From the IMG/VR virus record IMGVR_UViG_3300032285_001531: 64,000 bases of DNA. The stretch is one strand, 5' to 3'. Position 1 is the first letter of the stretch, and every line of letters begins with the position of its first letter. Shown one piece after another: positions 18,101 to 46,395 of the stretch. Below the pieces are notes generated by a model. The model was not told the origin of the DNA, searched no databases, and was given only the letters and a program-made list of their open reading frames with translations. This DNA is from a virus (taxonomy: Duplodnaviria > Caudoviricetes). The position numbers were made by a program, and so were the translations under genes.

Positions 18101-21100
18101 AATCCACCAACATTCGTGTCATCTGGAAATAACTATGGTGTTTACACAGGTGACGTAAACAGTGCCGGATTAGATTATGCACTCAGTGATACTATCATTA
18201 TATTGGGAACATCTTTAGGCGGTACTAGTCCAGCAAATGACTGTACTATTCTTGTAACTTCTGTAGGGGTAGACGGGTCAATATTAGGTATAGAGGTATC
18301 AGGTATACCACCAACAGTATATCAAGCTAGTTTACAGGGATCAACAGTTAAAATATTATCAGTAACAACTGAATCAGGAACAGGTGATACTCTGGTATCA
18401 TTAGACTATGCCAATAGCTCTTTATATCCAGCAGTTATTTCAGGAGCACAAGTATATTTTTATAAATCTACACATTTAACACCTTATGTTTATGATGATA
18501 CTATAAATGACGGGGCTGTGATTTGGATTTACAGTCCTAGATTATTTGGTTTATCAGTAAGTAATCAGTACTATATTGAAATCAAAGATGCAGGTATTAT
18601 TTACTCTACTGGAGATACTATTACTATTACCGGAGATTTATTGGGTGGAACTTCACCGGCTAATGATTTAATAATTACAATTACATATGCTGATCCTGGA
18701 ACAGGGGCAATAGTTTTTTATTCTTTAAATGGTGTTACTGTTGACTTGTATGAATTATATTTTGTCAAACCAATAAATTCTACTCAGGTTAAATTATACA
18801 CATCTTCTACATTATTATCACCGGTTATAGGATCAATTGATTTTACTACAAATGACGTTGTATTCTATCCTGAACCAATTGCAGGTAAACCTGGTTATAG
18901 TCAACCAATGATTTCGTTAGTTGCATACAATAATAAACTGTATCGTTGCATTGAAAGTAATACTGATACAGAGTTTGACTACGCTAAATGGGAATTATTA
19001 TACAGTGATGATCCTATGATTAATGCATTGGATAGAACATTAACATACTATCAGCCTACTGAAAGTATGCCAGGTAAAAACTTACCTTTATTAATGAGTG
19101 GGTTAGAATACCCAAATAGTACATATACTGGAAATAAGTTTGATCAGGCTATCACACTTGATGTTATACTAAATGACAAACCTTTCTATCCTAGCAATAT
19201 TGATGTTGCTGCAATTGTATGGGATGGAAATCAATTTGTAGCTGTTGGCAATACAACTAAGTATGTTATTCAAGAAGTTTTAAATGCTACCGCTTCTTTG
19301 AATGTAAACGTAGTATATGTAGAATTACCATACGCATATGACAGCATTAAAAAGGTTTCGGTATTTAATGCCACTAGAAATATAACGGTTAGCTCAGATA
19401 ACGTAGAATTAGTATTAACAGATACTTATCCTCAGTTAATATTTACTAATCAAGTATTAGAAGGTGACACATTAGTTATCACAACTTATTTTGGTGATAA
19501 TGAAGGTTACAGTATTGTTCTTCATAGCTCTAATGGAGTAGATTGGTCATTCAAAAAACTCAGTGATCAATTCTTAGATGTAAAAGATATTATATATTCA
19601 GGCTCGTTCTACGTGGTTGCAACAAACAATATCGATACTCCATTAATTATAAGTTATGATTCATATTCTTGGACTAGTGTTGGATCCTACACTGGTTATG
19701 ATATTTTTGAATATGACTCCGCAGGATTTGATACTGCTTCAGTTCAATCACCTAAGGATCAATTGAATAGTGTAGCATATTATAACAACCAGTATGTTTC
19801 TGTTGGTAAGAATATTCTATCAAGTATTAATGCCACTACATGGGATCAATCATTTAGTTTTGGATCAAGACTTACAAATACAATTAAATCTGTAAGCTAC
19901 ATAAACGGAACCTATCCAGCATTCAACGGATTTATTGCTGTTGGTTACGGTGATACTGTTACTGGAAATGAAAACACGCCTTACCCTAATATTGTACAAT
20001 ATACTAGAGTACTATTAAGCTATGATGGGATAAACTGGAACAATGTGTTCACTGGTCTACAATCTAAATGGTCGGTAGTATTTGGATCAGATACTACTAT
20101 CATAGCTGCTAGTGAAAATGGTGAAATATATTACAGTAACAATGGTTCTAACTGGGTACAAGCTACTATTAATGGAGCTCCGGTTACAGCTTCATTTAAT
20201 CATGGTATATTTGCAGCAAATAATTACATTCTTGTTGGTGATAAGGGCACAGTGGTATATAGTGCAGACGGTATAACTTGGACACAAGTTCCTTCAATAT
20301 CAAATAATAATTTACGTAAAATTTCATACAATGGCTTATATTCTAATGCTTCATATTTTATAGTAGTAGGTGATAAATCAACGATATTAAAGAGCGCCAA
20401 CTTACAAAATTGGGAAAATGAAACTTATATTAATACTGAGGATACTTTCTACGCTGTTAAAGGAGATCCTTTCTTATCAGGATATGGTCCGGAAGAATTA
20501 GTTCCTGGATTGATATATGATAATTTAAGTATGGTAGTAAGAAGCACACCTGGCTCATTATGGGATCCACTAGAATACAATAACTATGGTTTCTTTATGA
20601 AAGGAAAAACTGTAGTTTATGACGGTAATCAAGTAGTTGAGTTAGAGGACGGAACTACTCAATTCAGTTTTGCTGATTTAATGCTAAATCCTGCTCAAGT
20701 TGCAGTTTATACAATAGACGTTCAAAACTATGATCAGGCTACAAGAATATATGAAGTAAACTCTGTGGATAATCCTACTGCAGTAACAATCATAGAATCT
20801 ATCGACTGGGTTAATAAAACAGTAACTATTTCTTCTGGTTTTAACTACGGAGCATATAATATATATGTTGAAGTATATGGAGTAGGTGCAGGTAATCAAC
20901 AAGCCAAAGGTAGTTCAGATAGCGTACCTGTATATTATGATAGTAAGTTGGATGTAAGTTACATTGAAACTGATTACCCATATGATCCTAATGCATACTT
21001 AGTACCGTTAGTATATGTTAATGGAATTAAGAAAACATTTAATGTAGATTATGTGATAGTTCCTAGTTTCAATTCATCTATACAAATTCAATTTAATAGT

Positions 21101-22579
21101 GTAATTGATATTGAAACCGAATATGTAAACTTTACATTATGTGGTACTACACAAATTAATAACTTACCGCAACGTGATTATAGTATACCTGAATTACAAG
21201 TATTCCAATATATATCCGGTGCTCAAACATTTACACTTACAAATTATGTAGGAGATTCTAATCCAACCAATGCATTAGTTGAACTGAATGGAGTTAGATT
21301 AGTTCCTACTGTAGACTACACTATTATTAGTGTAACGTTGACTGTAATAACTTCATTATCTGCCGACGATGTAATTGCAGTGACAACTTTTGCAGACACC
21401 TCATCACAATATTTTGTTACTGATGAAGAAAACACAATTAACACATCTCCTATCGTTAACATCAATACATTGACAGTACCGGTAGTAGTAACTACCAATA
21501 AGAATACTGGATTTATTAGTGGTGATTCAATTATAATGGATGGTATTACTGGATCTACTCAGTTAAACGACATATTAAAATATGTTAAACCACTAGCAAC
21601 TTATGTTGAAGGTGCAACAACATATTACCCATATGAATTGTATGATGATCCAGATTTCTTATATCCTGTTATTCCTAACTTAACCGGCAAATATACCGGT
21701 GGGGGATATATTTGGAAGGCCTCAGATACTTTCCAAATCTCAAATACCAATTTTGATTTAACCGATGTAAACAGATTGTTTGTGACTGTAAGTGGACTTA
21801 GAATAACTCCTGATAAATTACGTATAAACACAAACAACAATTTACTTAATATCATTACTGATATAAGTGTAGGTGATACAGTATTGGTTACAAGCTTTAT
21901 GCCTACAGCGACACCAGATGAGGAAAGTTATTTGTTAAGTATTGATAGAAACGGTAATGCTTCAGTATACAATGCAAATATTAACAATAGAACATGGATA
22001 ACACAACCATTATATTTTAATGATACAGCAATTCATTTATTTGATGTATCTAAGTTAATTGATACCAAAACTATTAACATAGTAGCACAAAGTGACGGGA
22101 CTAAAATTTATGTTGATTTACCATATTTAATTGATGATATTAAGCAAATCTCTATAGAAAATAATAGTACCTTTACAACTATTTCTTACAGTACTCCGAC
22201 AAATCCATATGGAGCATATCTAGAGGTTCAGGATTCAGTAACTAAATTGATATTCCCTAGCATAGAAAATGTAAGTGCGGGTAATAATTTAACATTGACT
22301 TTACGTTTTGGGGATAAATTAACAATCAACGGGGAAAAGATTTTCTTCAGTATAGTTAATTATCAGGATAATACAGTATCAGGATTGATTCGAGGGGTAG
22401 ACGGTACACCGACCCGAGAATTCCACGAAACTAATAGTTTTGTTTACGGACTATCAGTAATAGATAGACTCCCTGACTATTACTATAACAAGACTTGGAA
22501 CAGTGAAATCTACAGTAATTTGGGTGATCCGCTACAAATAAGCAACACTTACCCAGCAAGATTCCTAAAAGCAAGGTAA
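6188..22579 (+). CDS. Giant (5463 aa) virion structural protein, probably a baseplate wedge protein with beta-propeller/adhesin modules
   Basis: Uninterrupted 16.4-kb ORF following gp6. Contains FG-GAP-like repeats (FGYSLSTNYDGTKLFVGAP, FGRSMS..GNELIIGAP), Asp-box-like repeats (SSNGVDW, SYDGINW, YSNNGSNW, YSADGITW) and a duplicated LGGTSPAND module. Confidence 0.65.
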   Translation: MVTKVRTLDFLPDIFKTVPNQAFLSATLDQLVQQPDTQKIQGYIGRKFEYGITPSSYYVTEPNKTRSNYQLEPAIIFTQKDTSKATDFITYPEIIDALRVEGSPVNNNSNLFANEFYSWDSFTDLDKLTNFSQYYWLPTGPDSVEVRPTAIPVSSVYTLTSYIHYYQFTKDNELIPEINPTITLARGGEYYFGVDQKTDFYIQTMPGINGIDPQRNNVSTREVFGVSNNGQSKGVVTFKVPYANAQSGDVYEGLVKVDLVTTLAFNDIDGRRLSEIGTIDGVNQLLDRTLMFYGDKNSKYVNVDSFYDFTSYDQSQPVEVGFDQTIPLQLNDFFYRIVYESLDIPNDPIIRLESAGTIPINTNIQVLIGKDYSNKKFVKNVYGEIALIPQITAPLDTLYYQDSVDPLRFGVIKLIDLETDNYLNIENEILGKIGYTSPNNVKFTNGLKVNFAGNVIPASFKGKDYYVDGVGSKIVLLPVNEFVVPEPFSTGIYTAYDAAPYDLTVYSDILETPTIPDYITISRNSRSRNPWTRSNRWFHKDVIQETINHTSSSVLLSIINNETNRAKRPIIEFYPNIKLYNSGTDSKQPIDFIDFVETNGLANVAGRELVVTTGINGGTNAIQVNDTSTMTAGQAISFTGDMFTSLGVVTVDANVIYYVKEILSGTDFTISETLGGPVFDVATSITPVTIIPYCVDGKAVFDGAKVVFAVDSNIDARDKIYIVKFVTLHGGTRYYITLTKAPDGDVQYNDQTVVLFGNTAKGKSFYYDGSNWIEAQSKTLVNQPPLFDVYDKNGTSFGDQTYYNSSDFTGITLFQYAVGTGNDDPVLGFPLKYSSVNNVGDISFEVSLNTQSFHYVLNGLPVTEAVNEGYPIIYSDRSTYENQLGWQTAASPSFQYQAFEFTYYPANNNTFFVCDVPVKPVNETAWPVIRVTMGETVLDSTMYTYTVTGSTTTVTFASTPLVEIPVQILIYSDKVSATAYYVIPTNLENNIFNNEVSTLNLGDIRNHFQTIFLNSEKLTGSAFGANNYRDVPNLLRYGTKIIQNSAPLTIAGALLRNKSFSLLESLSFNSNEYVKFKSLLIDTINKTDYTVYQSDASILDDALSQISSYKTDVNAFFWSDMLPSRSSYISNTYKFSTFVDTTNFQLSRIYDFSSANYYGVLIYLSRTVDGVPRTIQLVKDIDYQISSTEAQVTIFTDLIPNDLIIINEYNQTYGSFVPNTPSKLGFYPISVPEVVYDETYISPAYFIKGHDGSYTKLYGDYIDGYLVDFRDRALYEFELRVYNNIKVKAKIPVTADEVIPGQFRTTNFTYDEILGLYSTYFLNWIGKNRIDYKSQYYSMNNPYTYNYNQSANKLDNTQINQGNWRGMYNWFFDTTTPNLTPWEMIGHANKPSWWDARYGASPYTSDNMLLWQDMEAGIDYNNGSPFVNPARVRPGLSKVLPVDSMGNLVDPMNSVVGNYDNLTFNRDWRVGDWGPAEYSYIKSSTYPFDLIKLLALCKPAKFFALGEDLDHYKFNTEFNQYLYDNRFRFSTVNAVKYGSGVAQHSYLDWVVDYIQSSGNTGYDVLTNILTNLDVRLVYRMAGFSDKDLLKFYVDKGTPNSKNNSLLIPDESYSVILHENQPFDTVTYSSVIVQKTDTGYKVFGNSQNKIYFTTYTPLLNGKYDKLTVGGETVTVTKDYIKKELIIPYNTEFPTIQALSEFLSNYGKYLTDHGFVFDVIDRGILVDWNSMIKEVLYWTQSGWEVGAIINLNPAAKRIVINKESSIVQPLTLQDQNYILNQDLIPIQIKDMNVNRNGTEFSADILNENDTASYFIANLSNIEHAIVFDNTTLFNDLIYDPNTGLRQYRILVKGVKTAEWTGTMDTKGFILNQDNIQEWQANSRYSKGVIIKYKNVYWAADDIIQPASTFQQALWKRVDYEKIQKGLLPNASSRAYESTLYYDSNSANLESDADLLGFSIIGYRPRNYLAAANLDDISQVNLYKTMVVEKGSKNAVSAIQNITLQTGGIQYETYENWAINVGQYGGILNQNFIEFTLNQNQLSGNPAIIGITKDTEVPGATQIVPLNALTNYGRSITDANILPLLDPATTNKLPSAGYVNFNDVRMYSYTYLGLNNTTLPVDQLNKNEYIWVADYKNEWQVYTPEAITFAGSPSQVINITNNLNSTATVTFDNPHGLVKDDLFIIQNYSDLLDGFYIVNQVGSITTVVVDISLSATAQTSTQSVGLAAKMISARITESNDIINTDFLNSEFVTSKLWVDQAVNGGWAVYKKTLNYQRTNFVDKPEVTVSFGSAVAYDTKLGYFISDADDGKLYRYTYSVVSQDYSLVDTISVSTGYGSAIAHSNDMMAVTLPGSTSYVYIYSLEQTKNIEAVVQQQIITITGKIAGYKIAMSGDKKYLFVPATNNAQVLVYRLDNNYTYTSTGYATNANIAIGDQTFTIAGNHTAIYNEGDKVTFANTNGTTVYKFIKAYYDSANSQTVYSIEGNFSENISSGTTAYKATYRYTSVGTVSVGGLGSSDNFGYSLSTNYDGTKLFVGAPNQDYSFNYTDEGYAYIFNRVVQNFYQSYASLTDASTTYTLAYAATNTPVVLLNEEVVDPTNYTVYTSAIDTYGSLVAGSGYTNGQYSIALTNLTGSGTGAVAQITVSGGAVTNLWLRNRGSGYAIGNELTAALPAGSSFKITVTAIKNLLTLNVPVNAGDIVTFSSGDFIQSQTLVGHDIIANPKVGVLFGRSMSNNTSGNELIIGAPYDVTNTGIEGSVYRFTNEAQKYGMIKGTTTVTLASPTSILINGYAVTLPVGIDNIISTINNAILPNIQASKTTDNKLIISLIDATLSPSNNKLNITVFDSAVYGYLGFNLYTKTQVLHDINQQNATQFGYELKFNEYNSFVVSSLVGTRYSLTSFDFTDDGNYTNDTIFDNNFTMFVDTLPNAGCAYMYDYIPTYNENIDSVGQFVLAQTVNDVITDIGNTEYYGETIAFNNYVVMIGSPNFKPGTDDGRVNIFYNQANEQDWAIYRSAGSVVDVNKLQNIQIFNNRDSSMLSTLDYIDPLQGKLFGVVRENLDFISDNDPAGYNTSTVNNKVVWGSDYVGSMWLDTSAIRFVDYHQQDLVYNSRYWGTVFPGSTVAVYTWTENDVPPITFTSTGTPYELDSYTMLSTVTNTGAVLTKYYYWVRNTDTVYAGNSLSDNVIESYITNPLGSGIPFFAAYAQNEFGLYNSAEFIQSTDSSLHIGYKQGTNDDVPHNEFQLIRDGYADDFLHGLPSLYNPVIEPEGLYRKLLDSLSGTDVRGNELPDPFLPKLLQIGTQVRPRQSFFVDRLMALQNYCMYANSVMIQFPIVEMKNPSFSGLFKATSGQNAPAFFTTYGEFYDTANYWEYVNWWATGYSDATRTDVEVPKYYDLSTLVPFTNMVAGVISNSDGKREVYVYNGIEWERVGLQLGTIQIKESLWNYTINKIGFGDNFFDTDLYDYFPSVETENIVRGLTEEVFTGDMAIYRNRSLILLFEYIITESQNYGGYLTWLNKTSFLDVQHTLRELVQSKNFQRDNDDFLYGYINEVKPYRVVLKEFSLRYTKTEVYDGDISDFDLPASYNATLDRFISPQLVFTENYKTGEYLPSDTIWQDNLYNQWFNNYGVILSSIPNYNLGTLKYFISVTSREIVVDNAFGYPTVGILQIDDEIISYTGVDRDRGILYGVIRAENNTVAAVHYPGTKIYTDLPGAVVFYTGRGYTDAPVITAYIDTNIYPVPNQKAVLKAIMSGDIVVGVEIVNPGAGYAVTPDIIVEPSIVSTFGSIDVNYISNTILVLYDNFITGDLVKYTAGTSRILGLIDGDYYYVGLTEYVGVTKPAPTGETSGSLTPIALYTSKIDAINDSHRVVMIQAGESTDNKLSLGARIIPISSNKPTRQLTTKLKFDRTSYRPQVVEWEPNGFYGALYDTRGNDASYAALLSTSIDYYSVTGETSASGHDAVFNIFNWVYGGGNNPPTFVSSGNNYGVYTGDVNSAGLDYALSDTIIILGTSLGGTSPANDCTILVTSVGVDGSILGIEVSGIPPTVYQASLQGSTVKILSVTTESGTGDTLVSLDYANSSLYPAVISGAQVYFYKSTHLTPYVYDDTINDGAVIWIYSPRLFGLSVSNQYYIEIKDAGIIYSTGDTITITGDLLGGTSPANDLIITITYADPGTGAIVFYSLNGVTVDLYELYFVKPINSTQVKLYTSSTLLSPVIGSIDFTTNDVVFYPEPIAGKPGYSQPMISLVAYNNKLYRCIESNTDTEFDYAKWELLYSDDPMINALDRTLTYYQPTESMPGKNLPLLMSGLEYPNSTYTGNKFDQAITLDVILNDKPFYPSNIDVAAIVWDGNQFVAVGNTTKYVIQEVLNATASLNVNVVYVELPYAYDSIKKVSVFNATRNITVSSDNVELVLTDTYPQLIFTNQVLEGDTLVITTYFGDNEGYSIVLHSSNGVDWSFKKLSDQFLDVKDIIYSGSFYVVATNNIDTPLIISYDSYSWTSVGSYTGYDIFEYDSAGFDTASVQSPKDQLNSVAYYNNQYVSVGKNILSSINATTWDQSFSFGSRLTNTIKSVSYINGTYPAFNGFIAVGYGDTVTGNENTPYPNIVQYTRVLLSYDGINWNNVFTGLQSKWSVVFGSDTTIIAASENGEIYYSNNGSNWVQATINGAPVTASFNHGIFAANNYILVGDKGTVVYSADGITWTQVPSISNNNLRKISYNGLYSNASYFIVVGDKSTILKSANLQNWENETYINTEDTFYAVKGDPFLSGYGPEELVPGLIYDNLSMVVRSTPGSLWDPLEYNNYGFFMKGKTVVYDGNQVVELEDGTTQFSFADLMLNPAQVAVYTIDVQNYDQATRIYEVNSVDNPTAVTIIESIDWVNKTVTISSGFNYGAYNIYVEVYGVGAGNQQAKGSSDSVPVYYDSKLDVSYIETDYPYDPNAYLVPLVYVNGIKKTFNVDYVIVPSFNSSIQIQFNSVIDIETEYVNFTLCGTTQINNLPQRDYSIPELQVFQYISGAQTFTLTNYVGDSNPTNALVELNGVRLVPTVDYTIISVTLTVITSLSADDVIAVTTFADTSSQYFVTDEENTINTSPIVNINTLTVPVVVTTNKNTGFISGDSIIMDGITGSTQLNDILKYVKPLATYVEGATTYYPYELYDDPDFLYPVIPNLTGKYTGGGYIWKASDTFQISNTNFDLTDVNRLFVTVSGLRITPDKLRINTNNNLLNIITDISVGDTVLVTSFMPTATPDEESYLLSIDRNGNASVYNANINNRTWITQPLYFNDTAIHLFDVSKLIDTKTINIVAQSDGTKIYVDLPYLIDDIKQISIENNSTFTTISYSTPTNPYGAYLEVQDSVTKLIFPSIENVSAGNNLTLTLRFGDKLTINGEKIFFSIVNYQDNTVSGLIRGVDGTPTREFHETNSFVYGLSVIDRLPDYYYNKTWNSEIYSNLGDPLQISNTYPARFLKAR

Positions 22580-25640: not shown

Positions 25641-25946
25641 ATGGAAATAAACAAACTACTATCAGAAACCAAAGCTAGATTTGAACACAATTTAGCTAAA
25701 TCATATTTAAAAGAAAAATATCAAAATAGTTTAATTTTCGCAGACCAAGGTGGTTTGTGGAAAGCCTCACCAGAATTACTTTCACTACTTGAGACTAGTA
25801 GTGCTGAAACAGTGATTCTAATAGATACATATGACAATCCAGTTAAAGTTAACAGAGATTCTTTACTACAAAAAGCCTATACCATTTATTTAAATGCGAC
25901 AGAAGAATATTACAACGAGTGGGTTGAGTTAAGAAAGCAACGATGA
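25641..25946 (+). CDS. Hypothetical protein, first gene of the glycosyltransferase/radical-SAM cluster
   Basis: 101 aa; ATGA-coupled to the next gene. Confidence 0.6.
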   Translation: MEINKLLSETKARFEHNLAKSYLKEKYQNSLIFADQGGLWKASPELLSLLETSSAETVILIDTYDNPVKVNRDSLLQKAYTIYLNATEEYYNEWVELRKQR

Positions 25947-32571: not shown

Positions 32572-32742
32572 ATGACACTTATTTGGGTATTACTAGTATT
32601 TGTAACTAATGACGGAGAATGGCGTGAATGGAACTCCTTTACCCGTGAGAGTGAGTGTTTGGAAGTAGCAAGAGTAATCACACATCACCGTGAAGATAGT
32701 ATTCAAGCTATGTGTGTAGCAAAACCAGTTATTAGTTCTTAA
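32572..32742 (+). CDS. 56-aa small protein absent from the ORF track (MTLIWVLLVFVTNDGEWREWNSFTRESECLEVARVITHHREDSIQAMCVAKPVISS)
   Basis: Translated by hand; hydrophobic N-terminus and two Cys; fills the gap between the late promoter and the tmRNA. Confidence 0.6.
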   Translation: MTLIWVLLVFVTNDGEWREWNSFTRESECLEVARVITHHREDSIQAMCVAKPVISS

Positions 32743-33000
32743 AGAATTGTTGTAATTCCTTCAAAGTGAAGGCATTCTGGACGCGGGTTCGACTCCCGCC
32801 TGGTCCACCATAAGAGCATACTGTGTTTTTATGATGGGCTAGACATGGTTTCGACAGGGTGAGATAATAGAGAAGGCAACACAGTAGGCGATGACTGTAA
32901 ATCAAGCAAAATTAGTATCTGCAAACGATGATACATATCTATTAGCCGCAAACGGCTAATTAGCGGGGCAACTATGCCTTGTTACCAAAAATAGTAATAG
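32743..33000 (+). ncRNA. ssrA: Circularly permuted (two-piece) tmRNA
   Basis: The 3' tRNA-like half (GCGGG-TTCGACT-CCCGC T-arm, CTGGTCC-A-CCA ending at 32810) precedes the 5' half GGGCTAG at 32836. The acceptor stem carries the G3-U70 Ala identity pair; CAGGGTG/CATTCTG form helix 2; tag ORF 32921-32959 is preceded by the conserved UA at -5/-4. Outer ends are approximate. Confidence 0.9.
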
Positions 33001-33017
33001 GAGCTTCGGCTCCTATT
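32996..33017 (+). terminator. Rho-independent terminator after the tmRNA
   Basis: AATAGGAGC-TTCG-GCTCCTATT followed by TATTT. Confidence 0.75.
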
Positions 33018-33024
33018 TATTTGG

Positions 33025-33050
33025 ATAAAAGGCTCTTCGGAGCCTTTTAT
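33025..33050. terminator. Bidirectional terminator
   Basis: ATAAAAGGCTC-TTCG-GAGCCTTTTAT at the junction of convergent transcription units. Confidence 0.8.
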
Positions 33051-34613: not shown

Positions 34614-34620
34614 ATACAGC

Positions 34621-34626
34621 TATTTA
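34621..34626 (-). promoter_or_regulatory. Late promoter (TAAATA), probably leaderless
   Basis: Minus strand gaTAAATA-gctgtat-ATG(34613) with no SD. Confidence 0.55.
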
Positions 34627-34688
34627 TCGGATAAAAAGTTACTGGTTACGAGTTCCAGTGACACTCTATAAGCGTGTCCGATTTAAGT

Positions 34689-35399
34689 TTAATTCCAGTA
34701 CGTACTATTGTCTAGTTTGTTCCAGTATTCTATATTGTTACGATTTATAAAGTTTTTGATGAGGTACGCAGCCATTCCAAAATAGCCCATTTTCTTAAAT
34801 CTGCGTGAATCCTGTCCAAAGTAATGTTTGATGATTTTGAATTTTTTCGGACTATACATTCTGGATAGGAAATAATCTTCAGAGGTCGAGAACTTTTCAG
34901 GGAACCCACCAAATTCTTCAAACTTGTCTCTACGAGTGAGCATGAACGCACCCACAGCAAATGGGCTAAAATATTTTAGAACACTATTAACTAAATTAAA
35001 GATACTAAAGCCAATAGCTGTTCTCCAATCATCATCGTAACACATGATATTCAATCCAACTAAATCTAAGTTATTACTTTCAATTTCATTAACTGCATCT
35101 TGTATAACATATTTGCTGAAAAAACGGACATCAGCATCAATAAACAAAATATATGGAGTAGTAACTAATCTTGCTCCGTTGTTCTTAGCGACACTAACAG
35201 GACCACCATCTATGATTTCTATATTTAAAAAAGCACTATTGTCTTTTATAACTTGTCTGGTATTGTCTGTAGAACAATCAGCAATAATAATTCTAGTACC
35301 ACCTAGCTCCTGTAAGCGCAGGGAATCAATTAAATGATAAATGTAATTTTCTTCATTTTTGCAAGGAACTACAATTGTAATTTTTTCACTTAGTTTCAT
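34689..35399 (-). CDS. Family 2 glycosyltransferase
   Basis: ITIVVPCKNEE, IIIADCSTDNT, ILFIDAD (DxD) and SED motifs. Start moved to MKLSEK at 35399, which is ATGA-coupled to the hidden ORF. Confidence 0.85.
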   Translation of the reverse strand: MKLSEKITIVVPCKNEENYIYHLIDSLRLQELGGTRIIIADCSTDNTRQVIKDNSAFLNIEIIDGGPVSVAKNNGARLVTTPYILFIDADVRFFSKYVIQDAVNEIESNNLDLVGLNIMCYDDDWRTAIGFSIFNLVNSVLKYFSPFAVGAFMLTRRDKFEEFGGFPEKFSTSEDYFLSRMYSPKKFKIIKHYFGQDSRRFKKMGYFGMAAYLIKNFINRNNIEYWNKLDNSTYWN

Positions 35400-35569
35400 A
35401 TTTTTTTTACGCATTTACCTTCAATCTTAAATGATTCAAATTTTACCCAATAAGCCATGCTTCTTAGACTTTGTTCGCAACTTTGTTGATCTGGAAAATC
35501 CATTGTCATTTTCGCTGGAATGTCCTTTGGATCGTTTATGTGTACCGCTATCAATATCATCAACCACAT
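35396..35569 (-). CDS. Hidden 57-aa protein (MWLMILIAVHINDPKDIPAKMTMDFPDQQSCEQSLRSMAYWVKFESFKIEGKCVKKI)
   Basis: GGAG RBS 7 nt before the ATG; its TGA overlaps the GT2 start (ATGA); overlaps the last 134 nt of the phosphoesterase gene in another frame. Confidence 0.65.
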   Translation of the reverse strand: MWLMILIAVHINDPKDIPAKMTMDFPDQQSCEQSLRSMAYWVKFESFKIEGKCVKKI

Positions 35570-36320
35570 TATCTGTCTCCTGTGTCCAAGTTACAATCTC
35601 CCACTTACCATTGTGATGTTCTACAAGTGCAGTCATTGATTCAACCCAATCACCGTCGTTCATATAAACGACACCATCTACTTCTTTTATCTCTGCATGA
35701 TGTATATGACCACATATAACACCATCAAATCCTCGCTTCTTACAATACTGTGCTAAGTTCTTTTCAAACTGGAACATAAAGTCTATGGCTCGTTTGACTT
35801 TTCCTTTAAGATACTTAGAAAGGCTCCAATAACCAAAACCCATCCTATGACGGATCCAATTAAATCGAGTGTTGAGAGCAAGGACGAAATCATAGGCTTT
35901 ATCTCCTAATATTGAAAGCCAAGGTGCTAGTCTTGTGATTCCATCAAACAAGTCACCATGCACTACTAAGTAATGCTTACCATCTACACCTATATGTTCT
36001 ATTTGATTGGTAATCTCTAGCATACCAAATCCTAAACCATAATGCATAAAAGGTCTTAAGAACTCGTCATGGTTACCTGCTACGTATACAACTCGTGTAC
36101 CACGTTTGCTATGACCAAGTATTCTACGTATCACATTACTATGACTTTGTTTCCAGCGCCACTTGTTTTGTTTAATCTTCCAAGCATCAATGATGTCACC
36201 AACAAGGTATAATGTTTCGCAACTGTTATTCTTTAAGAAATTGTTTAGTGCTTCTGCTTTACAGTCTTTAGTACCTAAATGTACATCACTGATAAAAATA
36301 CTGCGATAAGTCTTATTCAT
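35436..36320 (-). CDS. plcP: PlcP-like metallophosphoesterase (phospholipase C of the LpxH/calcineurin-like superfamily)
   Basis: FISDVHLG, LVGDIID, GNHDEFLR, HGDLFD, LGDKAYD, GYWSLS, GVICGHIH and NDGDWVES match the PlcP/UDP-2,3-diacylglucosamine-hydrolase-like family. The upstream Pho box and downstream GT favour PlcP over LpxH. Confidence 0.75.
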   Translation of the reverse strand: MNKTYRSIFISDVHLGTKDCKAEALNNFLKNNSCETLYLVGDIIDAWKIKQNKWRWKQSHSNVIRRILGHSKRGTRVVYVAGNHDEFLRPFMHYGLGFGMLEITNQIEHIGVDGKHYLVVHGDLFDGITRLAPWLSILGDKAYDFVLALNTRFNWIRHRMGFGYWSLSKYLKGKVKRAIDFMFQFEKNLAQYCKKRGFDGVICGHIHHAEIKEVDGVVYMNDGDWVESMTALVEHHNGKWEIVTWTQETDNVVDDIDSGTHKRSKGHSSENDNGFSRSTKLRTKSKKHGLLGKI

Positions 36321-36338
36321 GTTATTATCCTATATAAT

Positions 36339-36373
36339 TATTTAATAGGAATTGTGTGACAATAATATGACAA
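36339..36373 (-). promoter_or_regulatory. Pho box promoter for plcP-orf57-GT2
   Basis: Minus strand TTGTCAT-ATTA-TTGTCAC (36373-36356, 11-bp period), a 10-nt spacer, then TTAAATA. Confidence 0.8.
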
Positions 36374-36380
36374 ACCGTAA

Positions 36381-36404
36381 AAAAAGGCACCTAAGTGCCT
36401 TTTT
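36381..36404. terminator. Rho-independent terminator after the porin gene
   Basis: AAAAAGGCAC-CTAA-GTGCCTTTTT. Confidence 0.8.
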
Positions 36405-36422
36405 ATTTTGCTCTAAATTAGA

Positions 36423-37547
36423 TTAGAAGCGATGCTGAATGCCAACTGCAAATGCACGTTGACTTAAAGCACTGTCACCAAAGTTTGAGCCACCACCATC
36501 TGGTACCCAACGATCATAAACAGTAAATGGTGCTGCTGCGTTTGCATTGCGGTTAGCAACTACATAGTCAGCGAACACTTCTGTACGCTTGCTGAATGCA
36601 TAAACTGCACCAACTGCATACATCTTAACATCATCTTTACCTGCTGTTACTTGGTCTTGTACATTGTAGTAACCACCGTTAACACTTACACGATCGGTAA
36701 CTTTGTACTTCGCACCAGCAAACCAAGTACGTGCATCAGTCTTACCGTCAGCTTTCGATGAGCTTGCACGGAATGCTGTTAGTGTATTTGGATTGTTAGT
36801 GATAACATAACCAGCGTTAACTAGTAAAGCATCAGTAACATTATACTTTGCTGCAACTAAGTCGATCTTTTCATCAACGTTAGCATTGGTTAAACGAACT
36901 TCTTCGTGTGTATATGCTACTTCTACTGGACCTGCTGTATACTTACCACCAATGTTGTAGCTGCTCTTTGAAGTAGTATCATTTAACTGATTACCAAAAC
37001 TATAAGAACCATCAACAACTAAGCCACCAAAGCTTGGTGATGTATAGCGAACCATGTTATCAAAACGTGATACGCCTGAACCACTATAGAAACCAGCATA
37101 ACGTGCGATTGGCTTTAAGCCACCGAAGTTCCAGTTGCCACGTGAATCAAATTCATCAAGTACGTTGTACAAGAAGTTCTTGCCACGACCTAATTGAATC
37201 TGACCAAATGAACCAGCTAGGGCTACATTTGCTTCACGATCAAATACTGTGGTTGAACCTGCACCGCCACTGCCTGAATCTTTACCAATTCCGCCAGTAC
37301 GTAGACTCAAGTTACTTTCTAAGTTAAACTTAGCTGTCATACCGTCGCCTAGGTCTTCTACACCTTTGAAGCCTAACCGATTGCTGCTGTGTAACTGTTC
37401 ACCGAAACCAGTGAAGTCACTGTTAGCTGAAGTGAAACCACTACCGCTAACTACACCTGCACCCAACAAACCATAAACGGTAACGTTCTGTGCCTGTGCA
37501 ACACCAGCCATAAGCATAAGTGCTGCTACTAATTTTGTTACTTTCAT
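36423..37547 (-). CDS. Gram-negative trimeric porin (betaproteobacterial Omp32-like)
   Basis: Signal peptide ending AQA; NVTVYG, RLGFKGVEDLGDGMTAKFNLE, FDREANVAL.G.FG.I.LGR, N.V.Y.SP.FGG, Y.FSKRT; C-terminal GIQHRF; ATGA-coupled to pstS. Confidence 0.9.
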   Translation of the reverse strand: MKVTKLVAALMLMAGVAQAQNVTVYGLLGAGVVSGSGFTSANSDFTGFGEQLHSSNRLGFKGVEDLGDGMTAKFNLESNLSLRTGGIGKDSGSGGAGSTTVFDREANVALAGSFGQIQLGRGKNFLYNVLDEFDSRGNWNFGGLKPIARYAGFYSGSGVSRFDNMVRYTSPSFGGLVVDGSYSFGNQLNDTTSKSSYNIGGKYTAGPVEVAYTHEEVRLTNANVDEKIDLVAAKYNVTDALLVNAGYVITNNPNTLTAFRASSSKADGKTDARTWFAGAKYKVTDRVSVNGGYYNVQDQVTAGKDDVKMYAVGAVYAFSKRTEVFADYVVANRNANAAAPFTVYDRWVPDGGGSNFGDSALSQRAFAVGIQHRF

Positions 37548-38551
37548 TTTACTTCTCCTAAGTTAAATTTAGACCATACATTCTTAACTATGGCAACTAC
37601 CTCTTTTGGTAGAGGAACATAGTCAAGTTCTACAGCCATCTTTTCTCCATTGTTAAAAGACCAATTGAAAAATTTTAAAACAGCTAATCCGACCGCAGGA
37701 TCGGCTTGCTGCTTATGCATGATTATATACGATGCACCTGTAATGGGCCAAGCATTCTGGTTAGATTGGTCTGTTAATATAACAGCCATACCAGGTGAAT
37801 TAGCCCAATCAGCACCTATTGCTGCTGCTTTGAATGTATCGTCATCAGGTTGAATCCATTTGCCTGCTTTGTTCTTTACTTGAACATGTGCAATTTTATT
37901 CTTTTTGGCATATGCGTATTCTACATAGCCAATTGCACCTTGCAGTCTTTGTGCGTTTGCAGCAACACCTTCGTTACCTTTGCCGCCTACGCCTGTTGGC
38001 CATTTAACTGCTGTACCTGAACCAACCTTTTCTTTCCATTCAGGAACTGTTTTGCTTAACCAGTCAGTGAACAAAAATGTTGTGCCTGAACCATCAGCAC
38101 GATGTAGTACAGTGATATCCATATCAGGAAACTTAACTGTTGGGTTTAGTTCTTTGATACGAGGATCAGTCCACTTAGTGATTTTGCCTAAGTATATAGC
38201 AGCAATTACATCTGCTGTTAATTTTATTTGCCCAGGCTGAATGCCAACTAGATTTACAACTGGAACTACTCCACCGATAATAGCTGGGAATTGAACTAAA
38301 CCTTCTTTGTCTAGTTCTTCTTGTTTCAACGGCATATCACTTGCACCAAAATCTACTGTTTTAGCTTTGATTTGTTTAATACCACCACCTGAACCAATTG
38401 ATTGATAATTAAGACCTATCCCTGTTTGGGCTTTATATGCTTCTGCCCATTTAGAATAGATTGGATAGGGGAATGTTGCTCCTGCTCCTGTGATGTCTGC
38501 TGCAAATGACGTACTTGACAGAATTACAAGTACTGCGAATAATTTTTTCAC
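37544..38551 (-). CDS. pstS: Phosphate ABC transporter substrate-binding protein PstS
   Basis: Signal peptide; ITGAGATFPYP.Y.KW, YQSIGSGGG, DFGASD, RADGSGTT, GGKGNEGV, WPITG; GTG start with AAGGAG RBS. Confidence 0.95.
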   Translation of the reverse strand: MKKLFAVLVILSSTSFAADITGAGATFPYPIYSKWAEAYKAQTGIGLNYQSIGSGGGIKQIKAKTVDFGASDMPLKQEELDKEGLVQFPAIIGGVVPVVNLVGIQPGQIKLTADVIAAIYLGKITKWTDPRIKELNPTVKFPDMDITVLHRADGSGTTFLFTDWLSKTVPEWKEKVGSGTAVKWPTGVGGKGNEGVAANAQRLQGAIGYVEYAYAKKNKIAHVQVKNKAGKWIQPDDDTFKAAAIGADWANSPGMAVILTDQSNQNAWPITGASYIIMHKQQADPAVGLAVLKFFNWSFNNGEKMAVELDYVPLPKEVVAIVKNVWSKFNLGEVK

Positions 38552-38593
38552 GTGTGTGTCTCCTTTTAAATATTCATGTATAATTGCACTAAA

Positions 38594-38628
38594 TATTTAA
38601 TGGCCGCAGTATGACAACTGTGTTACAA
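38594..38628 (-). promoter_or_regulatory. Pho box promoter for pstS-porin
   Basis: Minus strand TTGTAAC-ACAG-TTGTCAT (38628-38611, 11-bp period), a 10-nt spacer, then TTAAATA. Confidence 0.75.
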
Positions 38629-38658: not shown

Positions 38659-38913
38659 ATGGAAATAAAAGCTGCATTAGACTGGCAAAAAGTCGGAACT
38701 AACCTACGTAAGCAACTATCCTCAGTAAGCTATAACCCTGATTTAAAACAGATGTTTAAGAATATTGAAGAAATGGTTTCTGAGTTAAGTAAGTCCGAAG
38801 TTGTGGCCAGACAAACAAAAAGAACGTATCACTTAGAAAGTCAAGTACAGAAGATAAACAAAGCAATCAATCATTTGGAAAAATTGATATTGATTGCTCA
38901 GGTCATGAATTAA
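38659..38913 (+). CDS. Hypothetical protein (helical/coiled-coil)
   Basis: 84-aa ORF; plus-strand TAAATA at 38590-38595; its stop overlaps the stop of the convergent gene (TTAA). Confidence 0.6.
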   Translation: MEIKAALDWQKVGTNLRKQLSSVSYNPDLKQMFKNIEEMVSELSKSEVVARQTKRTYHLESQVQKINKAINHLEKLILIAQVMN

Positions 38914-43834: not shown

Positions 43835-43837
43835 GGC

Positions 43838-43902
43838 TTGACAGTCAATCATTTTGGGCATATAATTATACACATACACTGATAAACAAGGAGCTACAAA
43901 TG
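43838..43902 (+). promoter_or_regulatory. Early sigma70 promoter-RBS cassette, copy 2
   Basis: TTGACA(43838)-GTCAATCATTTTGGGCA-TATAAT(43861); AAGGAGCT RBS. Confidence 0.9.
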
Positions 43903-44292
43903 GCATACATATCACAAGAAAAGAAAGCAAAAATCGCCCCAGCAGTTAAAGCTATTCTCAAAAAGTACAATGTAAAAGGTTCATTAGCTGTTCGTAATCA
44001 GATGACATTGGTACTCAATCTTAAACAAGGCTCTATTGATTTTGTAGGCAACTTCAATGCTGTAACCGGTGGCTCATTGCATGGTAATTATGTAGAATAC
44101 GTACAAGTTAATCCTTACTGGTATCATGATCATTTTGATGGCAAAGCTAAAGCATTTCTGTCAGAAGTATTGGCTGCAATGAATGATGGTAATCATGATA
44201 ACAGCAATGCTATGATTGATTACTTTGATGTGGGCTGGTATGTTGATGTTAACATTGGTAAATGGAACAAATCTTACACATTAGTCAAATAA
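43900..44292 (+). CDS. Early hypothetical protein
   Basis: 130 aa with its own promoter and RBS; ends DYFDVGWYVDVNIGKWNK. Confidence 0.75.
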   Translation: MAYISQEKKAKIAPAVKAILKKYNVKGSLAVRNQMTLVLNLKQGSIDFVGNFNAVTGGSLHGNYVEYVQVNPYWYHDHFDGKAKAFLSEVLAAMNDGNHDNSNAMIDYFDVGWYVDVNIGKWNKSYTLVK

Positions 44293-44296
44293 TTAG

Positions 44297-44361
44297 TTGA
44301 CAGTCAATCGTTTTGGGCATATAATCTTTTACATCAACTAACAACACAGGAGCTAAAAATG
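44297..44361 (+). promoter_or_regulatory. Early sigma70 promoter-RBS cassette, copy 3
   Basis: TTGACA(44297)-GTCAATCGTTTTGGGCA-TATAAT(44320); leader identical to copy 1 through the ATG. Confidence 0.9.
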
Positions 44362-44616
44362 ACTGAATTCGAAACTAAATGCTACGGTATGTCAGAAGCA
44401 GAGATTCGTGAGCAATATATCAATTCATTAACTTCTAGATTTAGTAGCACTGAAATGACGGTGATGAGCATTTTGTCAGATTGCCAAGAAATGATTGCAA
44501 TGAAGAATCCAACTATCCCGGCTCCTAACACTGATGAATGGATCCGTAAGCAGTTGAATATTGCTAAGTTTATTTTGTGCGAAATGATGGATAACAAACA
44601 TAAGGAGACTGTATAA
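44359..44616 (+). CDS. Early hypothetical protein
   Basis: 85 aa behind cassette 3. Confidence 0.7.
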   Translation: MTEFETKCYGMSEAEIREQYINSLTSRFSSTEMTVMSILSDCQEMIAMKNPTIPAPNTDEWIRKQLNIAKFILCEMMDNKHKETV

Positions 44617-44813
44617 TGTCTATTCAACTTATTGTAGATGGCTTCAACGGACGTGGTGAACGTGTGATACTTTGGAGAAAAAGCGAGTACGTATACGAAT
44701 TAGAAATTGGCTCAGGTATTCATAAAAAGAGTCTTAAGTTTTATGAAACCGAATACTACGAAGCATTGGAGCAATTTAATGCAGCAGTAGAAAATTATCA
44801 ACCAGAATATTAA
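44616..44813 (+). CDS. Early hypothetical protein
   Basis: 65 aa; TAATG-coupled; GGAG RBS. Confidence 0.6.
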   Translation: MSIQLIVDGFNGRGERVILWRKSEYVYELEIGSGIHKKSLKFYETEYYEALEQFNAAVENYQPEY

Positions 44814-44815
44814 TT

Positions 44816-45085
44816 ATGAAACACACTAGTTATAGTTTTAAATGTGAGAAAGGTAAGGGGAATTATTATCGTACCTACATCTTTCATTATTCATTTATTA
44901 CTATTGTATTTGTGCCATTATTGCTAGGTGCTATAATAGTTTTATGTAATCCATTTTGGTTCAGGACTGCATTAATTAAACAATATAATAATTCAATAGA
45001 AAGACTTACTAATTGGCGGCATTACAAAGAGTACAAGATTTATTTGGGAACAGATCCTGAAGTATGGCATTTATTAAAGGATTAA
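44816..45085 (+). CDS. Small membrane protein
   Basis: 89 aa with one hydrophobic stretch (FITIVFVPLLLGAIIVL). Confidence 0.55.
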   Translation: MKHTSYSFKCEKGKGNYYRTYIFHYSFITIVFVPLLLGAIIVLCNPFWFRTALIKQYNNSIERLTNWRHYKEYKIYLGTDPEVWHLLKD

Positions 45086-45091
45086 AAGCAG

Positions 45092-45120
45092 TTGACAGTG
45101 AATCAATCTTAGATTATAGT
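45092..45120 (+). promoter_or_regulatory. Early sigma70 promoter
   Basis: TTGACA-17 nt-TATAGT; TAGGAGCTAAAA RBS as in the cassettes. Confidence 0.8.
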
Positions 45121-45162
45121 AGTTCTTGTAGTATTTTATTTCAAATTTTTTAGGAGCTAAAA

Positions 45163-46263
45163 ATGGCATCACAAATCAGCGATAACCATACAATTACAAG
45201 TGTACAAACACGTGACGCATTACTAACCGCATTTAAAGTTAAACGCCCAATCTTTCTTTGGGGCCCTCCCGGTATCGGTAAATCTGAAGTAGTTTCAGAA
45301 GTAACTGATGAACTTGGTGGTCTTATGATTGACTTACGTATGGCTCAAATGGAACCAACTGACATTCGAGGTATCCCATACTTTAATAAAGAAAATAATA
45401 AAATGGATTGGGCACCCCCAATCGATTTACCTGATGAAGAATTAGCAGCACAATATCCAATCATTGTGTTGTTCTTAGATGAGATGAACTCAGCACCTCC
45501 TGCAGTACAAGCAGCAGGCTATCAGTTGATTTTGAATCGCCGTGTAGGTCGTTATAAACTACCAAACAATGTTGTTATCGTAGCAGCAGGTAATCGTGAC
45601 AGTGACAAAGGTGTTACTTATCGTATGCCGATGCCGCTTGCTAATCGTTTCATTCACTTAGAAATGCGTTCAGATTTTACAGCATGGCAGGCTTGGGCAG
45701 TAAATAAAGCTATTCACAAAGACGTTGTTGGTTATCTGTCATTTGCTAAAAATGACTTATATGACTTTGATAGCAAATCTTCAAGCCGTGCATTTGCTAC
45801 ACCTCGTTCATGGTGCTTTGTGAGTGACTTGTTACAAGATGAAAAAATGAGTTCTGATACTCAATTCAATCTAATTGCAGGTGCAATTGGTGAAGGTCTT
45901 GCTACTAAGTTTGCAGCACATCGCCGTATGGCAGGTAAGATGCCTGAGCCAAGCGAAATTCTTGCAGGCAAAGTAAAAGAACTAGCAGTCAAAGAAGTTT
46001 CTGCAATGTACGCACTAGCTATTGCAATGTGCTATGAATTAAAAGATGCAGTTGACAATAAGAAAGTGGATATGAAGAAGTTCCACGAAATGGCTGATAA
46101 TTTCTTTGCTTATGCGATGGCTAACTTTGAAACTGAATTGGTTGTTGTTAGTGCTAAAATTGCACTGAAAACATACAAGCTTCCAATCGAACCAAGTCAG
46201 TTGAAAAACTTTGACGAATTTCACAAGAAGTTCGGTAAGTATATCGTAGAAGCAGGTAACTAA
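45163..46263 (+). CDS. MoxR-type AAA+ ATPase
   Basis: Walker A GPPGIGKS, Walker B LFLDEMN, AAGNR, PLANRF and ATPRSW. Confidence 0.85.
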   Translation: MASQISDNHTITSVQTRDALLTAFKVKRPIFLWGPPGIGKSEVVSEVTDELGGLMIDLRMAQMEPTDIRGIPYFNKENNKMDWAPPIDLPDEELAAQYPIIVLFLDEMNSAPPAVQAAGYQLILNRRVGRYKLPNNVVIVAAGNRDSDKGVTYRMPMPLANRFIHLEMRSDFTAWQAWAVNKAIHKDVVGYLSFAKNDLYDFDSKSSSRAFATPRSWCFVSDLLQDEKMSSDTQFNLIAGAIGEGLATKFAAHRRMAGKMPEPSEILAGKVKELAVKEVSAMYALAIAMCYELKDAVDNKKVDMKKFHEMADNFFAYAMANFETELVVVSAKIALKTYKLPIEPSQLKNFDEFHKKFGKYIVEAGN

Positions 46264-46300
46264 TTTAGAGGTAGCTCCCTGGTATAGCAATATACCATTT

Positions 46301-46332
46301 GGGTGAGAGTAGAAATATTCTCACCCGTTTTT
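46301..46332 (+). terminator. Rho-independent terminator (preceded by a second GNRA hairpin at 46280-46297)
   Basis: GGGTGAGAGTA-GAAA-TATTCTCACCC followed by GTTTTT. Confidence 0.8.
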
Positions 46333-46337
46333 AATTC

Positions 46338-46366
46338 TTGACAGTGAATCTATGCTTTGCTATAAT
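46338..46366 (+). promoter_or_regulatory. Early sigma70 promoter
   Basis: TTGACA-17 nt-TATAAT; TAGGAGCTCAAA RBS. Confidence 0.85.
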
Positions 46367-46395
46367 TATTATGTTACTTTTAATAGGAGCTCAAA

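Follow-up and report, generated by a model that had tools for sequence, protein, structure and literature searches.

Putative Pho boxes set at a fixed distance from a late-type TAAATA core before phosphate genes of uncultured jumbo phages

T4 late promoters are read by the sigma factor gp55 together with gp33 and the gp45 clamp, and a variant of the core, CTAAATA, occurs in phage Aeh1. To our knowledge, T4-type late promoters consist of minimal elements with the DNA-loaded sliding clamp as their sole known activator, and we know of none reported to carry a binding site for a host DNA-binding regulator upstream. The T4 octamer TATAAATA spans positions -13 to -6 (PMC1524935), and the jumbo phage CBB carries an ATAAATA motif before its structural genes as well as a gp55-like sigma (PMC5259590). 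Host control of phage phosphate genes is documented in cyanophages: pstS and phoA of P-SSM2 are under host PhoBR control according to Zeng and Chisholm (2012, as cited in PMC10976474), and genes of S-PM2d have been studied by PhoB gel shifts (PMC10976474). In bacteria, lipid-renovation operons pairing plcP with a glycosyltransferase gene have an upstream Pho box (PMC4796936). The present study concerns a stretch of 64,000 nucleotides (nt) from an uncultured virus of the Caudoviricetes (IMG/VR record IMGVR_UViG_3300032285_001531), hereafter the window, in which two promoters, one ahead of the phosphate-binding protein gene pstS and one ahead of a PlcP-like metallophosphoesterase gene, each place a putative Pho box at a fixed distance from the hexamer TAAATA.

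The two sites, A and B, are made up of the following features:

36356-36373, minus strand: Pho box A, putative PhoB site of the PlcP-like promoter; TTGTCAT-ATTA-TTGTCAC, an exact match, scoring 12/12 by the degenerate half-site rule
36339-36344, minus strand: TAAATA core of site A, 11 nt past box A; an extra T at 36345 makes it TTAAATA
38611-38628, minus strand: Pho box B, putative PhoB site of the pstS promoter; TTGTAAC-ACAG-TTGTCAT, an exact match, scoring 12/12 by the degenerate half-site rule
38594-38599, minus strand: TAAATA core of site B, 11 nt past box B; an extra T at 38600 makes it TTAAATA

The original prediction had quoted both strings of box, spacer and TTAAATA, and the minus strand contains both of them letter for letter. 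They share a single layout, in which a 7-4-7 Pho box is followed after 11 nt by TAAATA. Each box consists of two repeats of 7 base pairs (bp) that resemble CTGTCAT and lie 4 bp apart, and the prediction that these are Pho boxes is supported by their match to the consensus of 66 bacterial promoters (described below) and by their position only before phosphate-related genes. The 10-nt stretches between box and TTAAATA, ACAATTCCTA at site A and ACTGCGGCCA at site B, differ from one another, so the pair does not reflect a recent promoter duplication. A degenerate Pho box, TGTMAY-N5-TGTMAY, has two matches in the 64 kilobases (kb), namely sites A and B, and shuffled sequence gave a mean of 0.44 matches, with two or more in 6 of 100 shuffles; the composite of box, 11 nt and TAAATA occurs twice in the window versus 0 in 100 shuffles. 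The pstS transcript is predicted, from the T4 register, to start near 38588-38590, and the predicted start of the PlcP-like transcript is the A at 36333. An alternative sigma70 promoter at site A (TTGTCA-N17-AATTAT, 9/12 matches) was discarded as background, the same scan having found 24 promoter-like sites where 27 were expected from shuffles.

Site B also includes the palindrome TAAATATTTA (38590-38599), which gives a TAAATA on each strand, the plus-strand copy lying at 38590-38595. This copy faces a divergent open reading frame (ORF) of 84 amino acids (aa; 38659-38913, plus strand), and box B would fall within the 63-nt leader of that ORF. The arrangement is kept in the window's closest relatives (loci L006, L014, L019 and L065).

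The fused design is real and under selection. Its conservation was followed in 80 IMG/VR loci with pstS relatives and 80 with phosphoesterase relatives, by scoring the upstream regions of unique sequences, the window's own promoters included, and counting as good any box of at least 11/12. Orthologues of box B were present in 26 unique relatives and of box A in 39. The identical geometry noted in the original prediction extends well beyond the window, since the fixed spacing is kept in dozens of relatives: TAAATA stands exactly 11 nt past a good box in 27/27 unique pstS upstream regions, and at PlcP-like genes, where 40 good boxes were scored, the distance is 11 nt for 26 of them and 21-22 nt for the other 14, the latter being one helical turn further and accompanied by decay of the promoter-proximal half-site. 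Among these 67 phage promoters there was no good box without TAAATA downstream. In both half-sites the TGT and A positions are invariant in 26/26 aligned promoters of each gene, whereas spacer positions vary, the top base occurring in just 8-25 of 26.

The composite is also largely confined to phosphate genes. A scan of IMG/VR gave 88 occurrences in 80 loci, with 61 of them before PlcP-like genes (35) or pstS (26), 8 before genes of an uncharacterised family (about 215 aa) and a single one ahead of a Na/Pi-cotransporter fragment, the only Pfam match obtained for the other recurring genes behind composites. In four complete relatives of 355-367 kb the composite is present 0-2 times per genome, with 4 copies in all, three of them at pstS or the PlcP-like gene (the copy in genome G001 was not traced to a gene), and a reversed composite, used as a control, was absent from all four.

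The position of TAAATA relative to the start codon provides a further clue to its role. In 35 of 37 PlcP-like promoters (36 relatives and the window) the ATG lies 4-7 nt past TAAATA, most often at 5 nt (21 cases); this leaves no room for a ribosome-binding site and therefore implies a leaderless PlcP-like mRNA. At such a spacing the T4 register places +1 on the A of the AUG. The window itself departs from the pattern, having an 18-nt leader after TTAAATA with the Shine-Dalgarno sequence AGGA at 36328-36331. An extended -10 (TGn) was considered as a general feature and rejected, being found in many pstS relatives and not in PlcP-like promoters.

Several features of the relatives are worth recording in their own right. 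The family of about 215 aa found behind composite promoters begins MRFEDLAARL, and a second recurring family there is a membrane protein of about 320-333 aa; together they come from loci L273, L282, L293, L299, L314, L318 and L330, and also L292 and L302, and both are candidate new members of a phage phosphate regulon. The pstS leaders of many relatives (L002, L013, L024, L026, L028, L053, L063, L064, L069 and others) contain a hairpin 1-6 nt after TAAATA, most often at 4 nt, and the stems differ widely (TGTGC/GCACA, TGTAAGAC/GTCTTACA, and a 12-bp stem in L053), the window's version being weak. Hairpins so placed suggest that the RNA has a stem-loop at its 5' end, at the predicted start.

That TAAATA is a promoter core of the phage is evident from genes with no link to phosphate. 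Among hexamers in the 45 nt ahead of window genes it shows the highest enrichment (16/52, 14.7-fold, p = 6e-14), it stands before baseplate wedge, scaffold-like, tail and terminase genes with no -35 element, and its enrichment persists in relatives once the Pho-box promoters are taken out. The original prediction of a phage late motif is thus borne out for the TAAATA core of structural-gene promoters, but not for longer forms: the T4 octamer has 0 copies in the window, where the core alone is kept, and TTAAATA as a general upstream motif was rejected, most of its 22 copies being antisense inside plus-strand ORFs. A gp55-type late sigma (phrog_234) is encoded by all four of the complete 355-367-kb relatives (E = 7e-25 to 1.5e-22) and by two of three partial contigs of the jumbo lineage (E = 7e-25 to 2e-22 for both sets taken together). 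A contig of 223 kb that has one of the pstS promoters closest to that of the window encodes such a sigma. The gp55 homologue of this phage group is 273 aa long (L162, 1453-2274, minus strand), with an internal insertion of about 130 aa between the conserved N-terminal helix (NYLNNKDLL) and the sigma-2-like part. No domain was found in a Pfam search of the homologue and its insertion, and a region-4-like domain was rejected, the extra length being this internal insertion.

Within the window, TAAATA lies just 4-7 nt ahead of an ATG, with no ribosome-binding site, at 25641, 32572, 33972 (minus strand), 51454, 56296 and 61626, which suggests that these genes, the large terminase included, have leaderless late mRNAs. 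A different arrangement is seen at 43835-46395 (plus strand), where four near-identical early-type promoters (TTGACAGTCAATC/TTGACAGTGAATC followed by TATAAT or TATAGT) precede successive small genes, each with an AGGAGCT ribosome-binding site after the promoter.

Bacterial pstS promoters provided the control. From 80 fetched loci, mostly of Burkholderiales, 66 unique promoters with a good box were obtained, and their consensus Pho box is CTGTCATAAAGCTGTCAT (CTGTCAT-AAAG-CTGTCAT), compared to which the phage half-sites lean to TGTAAC/TGTAAT. A hexamer of the form TAnnnT begins exactly 10 nt past the box in 56/66, with A at position 2 in 66/66 and T at position 6 in 62/66, but it is otherwise free to drift, more than a dozen different hexamers serving as the -10. 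TAAATA was found in 0/66, whether at 10 or at 11 nt. Neither phage site has a sigma70 hexamer at 10 bp, the spacing of the hosts; TAAATA lies at 11 nt, with A at position 6. The differing host -10 and spacing indicate that the phage promoters were not copied from bacteria but rebuilt with the phage hexamer as their core, one base away from the host position. In the T4 register TAAATA spans -11 to -6 and the 11-nt spacer ends the box at -23; this is equivalent to a 10-nt spacer with the host hexamer at -12 to -7, so that the box lies at about -40 to -23 in both.

The reading we favour, and consider reasonably probable from these comparisons, is that each site is a composite promoter, in which a Pho box for host PhoB is fused to a T4-type late core read by a gp55-like sigma. 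The comparisons establish how the promoters are built, that this layout is conserved and confined to phosphate-related genes, and that bacterial promoters differ from it; the binding of PhoB, the identity of the polymerase and the logic of the promoter we infer. The 18-bp proteobacterial Pho box at about -40 to -23 would be the site for the host response regulator PhoB, and TAAATA at -11 to -6 would set the start site, its presumed reader being a TAAATA-specific late holoenzyme with the gp55-like sigma. Site B would drive pstS and a porin gene, and site A the PlcP-like phospholipase and a glycosyltransferase, the two units making up a small Pho regulon carried by the phage, which would serve to take up phosphate and to strip it from membrane lipids. 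PhoB in its phosphorylated form would bind on the same helix face and tune output to host phosphate status, which is probably wired into phage transcription in this way. With OR logic, PhoB would recruit the sigma70 holoenzyme to a weak -10 before the late sigma appears; with AND logic, it would act on the late holoenzyme itself.

Several points weigh against the composite reading. The mechanism is incomplete for either half of the hybrid. The gp55 homologue is without region 4, and the known PhoB contact therefore cannot apply to it; TAAATA lacks the -7 T and stands 1 nt off the host geometry, and its use by sigma70 is therefore doubtful. Of the hybrid promoter as first proposed, the fused design stands, but the half that paired PhoB with sigma70 is weaker, TAAATA being a poor -10 with A at position 6. 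A gp55 gene was not found within the 64-kb window, so that the link to a late sigma rests on relatives, and the counts among relatives given above are raw, uncorrected for shared ancestry. Phages of a second lineage (about 214 kb), whose gp55 is of the classic T4-like kind (E = 5e-62), have a Pho-like box before pstS that is followed by TTTAGTAG, and have CTAAATA promoters elsewhere. Co-variation of the pstS promoter with the late motif was accordingly rejected, the TTTAGTAG group still using CTAAATA elsewhere, and the fusion of box and TAAATA is therefore lineage-specific and not universal. One relative (L003) drives pstS from a plain sigma70-type promoter. Finally, Pho-box prediction in phages from sequence has been called unreliable without binding assays (PMC10976474).

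The second lineage has features of its own. Its pstS promoter reads TTGTGAC-N4-CCGTTAC, 13 nt, TAGTAG in about 28 loci (L004, L016-L018, L020, L025, L027 and others), and TAGTAG recurs ahead of one other conserved gene in these loci; it may represent a different promoter class.

A stricter form of the composite is one in which PhoB contacts the gp55-type late holoenzyme directly, by a contact not yet described, and the promoter would be a true AND-gate of late phase and phosphate starvation. The contact could be with the alpha C-terminal domain, with the beta flap or with a gp33-like co-activator. The hints are that the 11-nt spacer keeps the box at -40 to -23, that the shift to 21-22 nt keeps the helix face and that TAAATA is strictly retained; with these in hand we regard a true AND-gate as possible, though unlikely.

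Less likely again is that these are ordinary PhoB/sigma70 promoters, with TAAATA, or an overlapping TTAAAT or AATAnT, as the -10 and no part for the late sigma. The position of the Pho box is classical, and the PhoB-dependent phoE promoter of E. coli has TAAAAA as its -10. The Pho-linked promoters also carry two extra conserved Ts that are scarcer in non-Pho TAAATA promoters: a T directly before TAAATA in 27/44 versus 21/160 (the preceding base in non-Pho promoters being A in 79/160), and a T two bases after it in 40/44 versus 69/160. These generate TTAAAT 10 nt from the box, which is the host spacing, as well as AATAnT at 13 nt, and might represent the sigma70 side of a dual promoter. Against this, TTAAAT, the phage hexamer at 10 nt, has T where 66/66 hosts have A, and AATAnT lies 13 nt from the box, from where the start would land inside the coding region in the 35 leaderless promoters. 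Bacterial hexamers drift and never give TAAATA, whereas 67/67 phage promoters have exactly that sequence. The phage, moreover, makes a canonical TATAAT-type -10 where sigma70 is wanted, its early promoters being TTGACA-N17-TATAAT/TATAGT.

It is more doubtful still that the sites are plain late promoters, with the repeats as vestiges of captured genes or as sites for a phage factor, and PhoB without a role. TAAATA alone does serve many other genes, the proximal half-site has decayed in 14 relatives, and in one study predicted phage Pho boxes failed to bind PhoB (PMC10976474). Vestiges would hardly keep the TGT and A half-site positions invariant while spacers vary, or hold the spacing at 11 nt except for moves of one helical turn. 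The boxes also occur at two unrelated genes, with pstS and PlcP-like genes accounting for most composites, and the differing bacterial -10 and spacing argue for promoters that were rebuilt, not copied. A negative role, in which PhoB bound at -40 to -23 would hinder the late holoenzyme or its sliding-clamp activator, and at site B may also block the divergent plus-strand TAAATA facing the 84-aa ORF, has in its favour that late promoter complexes of T4 carry the clamp-gp33 complex at their upstream edge and that the TAAATATTTA palindrome gives TAAATA on each strand with the box inside the divergent leader, but is very improbable given that the palindrome is confined to the window's closest subgroup, that the box position is that of the activating boxes of the 66 bacterial promoters, and that shutting uptake and scavenging genes under phosphate scarcity makes little biological sense.

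The genes behind the two promoters of the favoured composite reading are those of phosphate acquisition and sparing, as expected of a Pho regulon (pstS, porin, PlcP-like esterase and glycosyltransferase), and are arranged as follows:

37544-38551, minus strand: pstS, periplasmic phosphate-binding protein of 335 aa, with a GTG start at 38551 and a signal peptide
36423-37547, minus strand: outer-membrane porin gene (Pfam Porin_4, E = 1.4e-45)
36381-36404, no strand assigned: bidirectional intrinsic terminator, a G+C hairpin between an A run and a T run
35436-36320, minus strand: PlcP-like metallophosphoesterase of 294 aa, with its ATG at 36320 (Pfam Metallophos)
34689-35414, minus strand: family-2/21-like glycosyltransferase (Pfam Glycos_transf_2 and Glyco_transf_21)

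The pstS gene has a Shine-Dalgarno sequence, AGGAG, at 38560-38564, and its product scores 417 bits against the NCBIfam equivalog NF008171 (cut-off 339) and is 60-73% identical to PstS of Burkholderiales. The porin gene overlaps the pstS stop by 4 nt (ATGA) and is therefore co-transcribed with it; a porin gene downstream of pstS was found in 0/70 unique relatives, and its addition to the phosphate unit appears to be recent and particular to the window. The terminator closes the pstS-porin unit immediately ahead of box A, and the same order of terminator and box is seen in relatives L082, L085, L138 and L160. The PlcP-like protein scores under the LpxH cut-offs, and its homologues in Polynucleobacter, Undibacterium and Herminiimonas share 50-51% identity with it. 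An agt-like glycosyltransferase gene lies downstream of the homologue in Polynucleobacter and in Herminiimonas, and the Polynucleobacter homologue is preceded by a Pho box. The phage protein is a putative phospholipase C of the lipid remodelling that accompanies phosphate starvation. The phage glycosyltransferase gene starts 21 nt downstream of the PlcP-like gene and probably shares its transcript; the two are directly adjacent in this order in 29/75 relatives.

Between the glycosyltransferase gene and the next gene (34614-34688, minus strand) there is a conserved two-hairpin element, consisting of an AATCGG-hairpin and then CTGGAAC(T)CGTAACCAG. In about 28 relatives (L081, L083, L086-L092 and others) it forms the phosphoesterase leader, directly before the ATG and with no visible ribosome-binding site. 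No Rfam match to the element was found.

The window itself is an AT-rich piece (about 35% G+C) of a jumbo phage, and among its genes are those for baseplate, terminase and scaffold-like proteins. The terminase shares 51% identity with that of PA5oct, with lower matches to Atu_ph07 and the Rak2-like phages GAP32 and CBB, and no match emerged when 50,697 phage records were searched for near-identity to the region. A single ORF of 5,463 aa follows the baseplate wedge gene (6188-22579, plus strand). An Rfam scan of the window found one RNA gene alone, for a transfer-messenger RNA (tmRNA):

32703-33050, plus strand: phage tmRNA gene of the betaproteobacterial family RF01850 (181 bits), with the ARAGORN tag peptide ANDDTYLLAANG

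A tmRNA of betaproteobacterial type, together with Burkholderiales as the source of the nearest PstS, indicates a betaproteobacterial host, which we consider probable from these similarities.

If the composite reading is correct, these phages couple their own temporal programme to the nutrient sensing of their hosts, through a regulator site locked in phase to a late core, and the design is conserved across many uncultured freshwater jumbo phages. The compact phage Pho regulon would combine phosphate binding, a porin and the conversion of phospholipid to glycolipid, and would be relevant to phosphorus cycling in lakes. It would also offer a clean test system, with two short promoters, one regulator and two sigma factors, for the action of a PhoB-type activator on a sigma without region 4.

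In comparison with known systems, the sites share with T4-type late promoters the TAAATA core, the absence of a -35 element, the use before structural genes and the presence in relatives of a gp55-type sigma, and the start inferred from the leaderless genes fits the T4 register, but the phage lacks the TA prefix of the T4 octamer. Like the bacterial Pho promoters of E. coli pstS and phoA and of Burkholderiales pstS, they have two 7-bp repeats 4 bp apart in place of the -35, ahead of phosphate-acquisition genes and at a fixed distance from the -10 region; the bacteria, however, use TAnnnT at 10 nt (56/66) and the phage an invariant TAAATA at 11 nt. T4 middle promoters, with a MotA box near -30 and a sigma70 -10, likewise replace the -35 with an activator site at a fixed distance, but MotA is encoded by the phage and works with sigma70 remodelled by AsiA, whereas the activator proposed in the present case is a response regulator of the host, and its -10-type partner is the late core. 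Bacterial plcP operons similarly place a PlcP-type gene and then a glycosyltransferase gene behind a Pho box, although the phage glycosyltransferase is short and family-2/21-like, its function being read from sequence, while the host copies adjoin an agt-like gene. Our literature searches turned up no account of proteobacterial Pho boxes held in phase with T4-type late cores. The closest parallel is the PhoBR control of cyanophage genes, where a site for the host phosphate regulator also lies ahead of captured phosphate genes and expression follows phosphate status. The cyanophage boxes, however, are of the cyanobacterial type, PyTTAAPyPy(T/A) repeats, with no reported fixed fusion to a late core, whereas the phages described here, with probable betaproteobacterial hosts, have a proteobacterial TGTCAT/TGTAAC box phased to TAAATA. 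Host PhoBR control of phage phosphate genes has thus already been published for cyanophages, and it is the present variant that is new.

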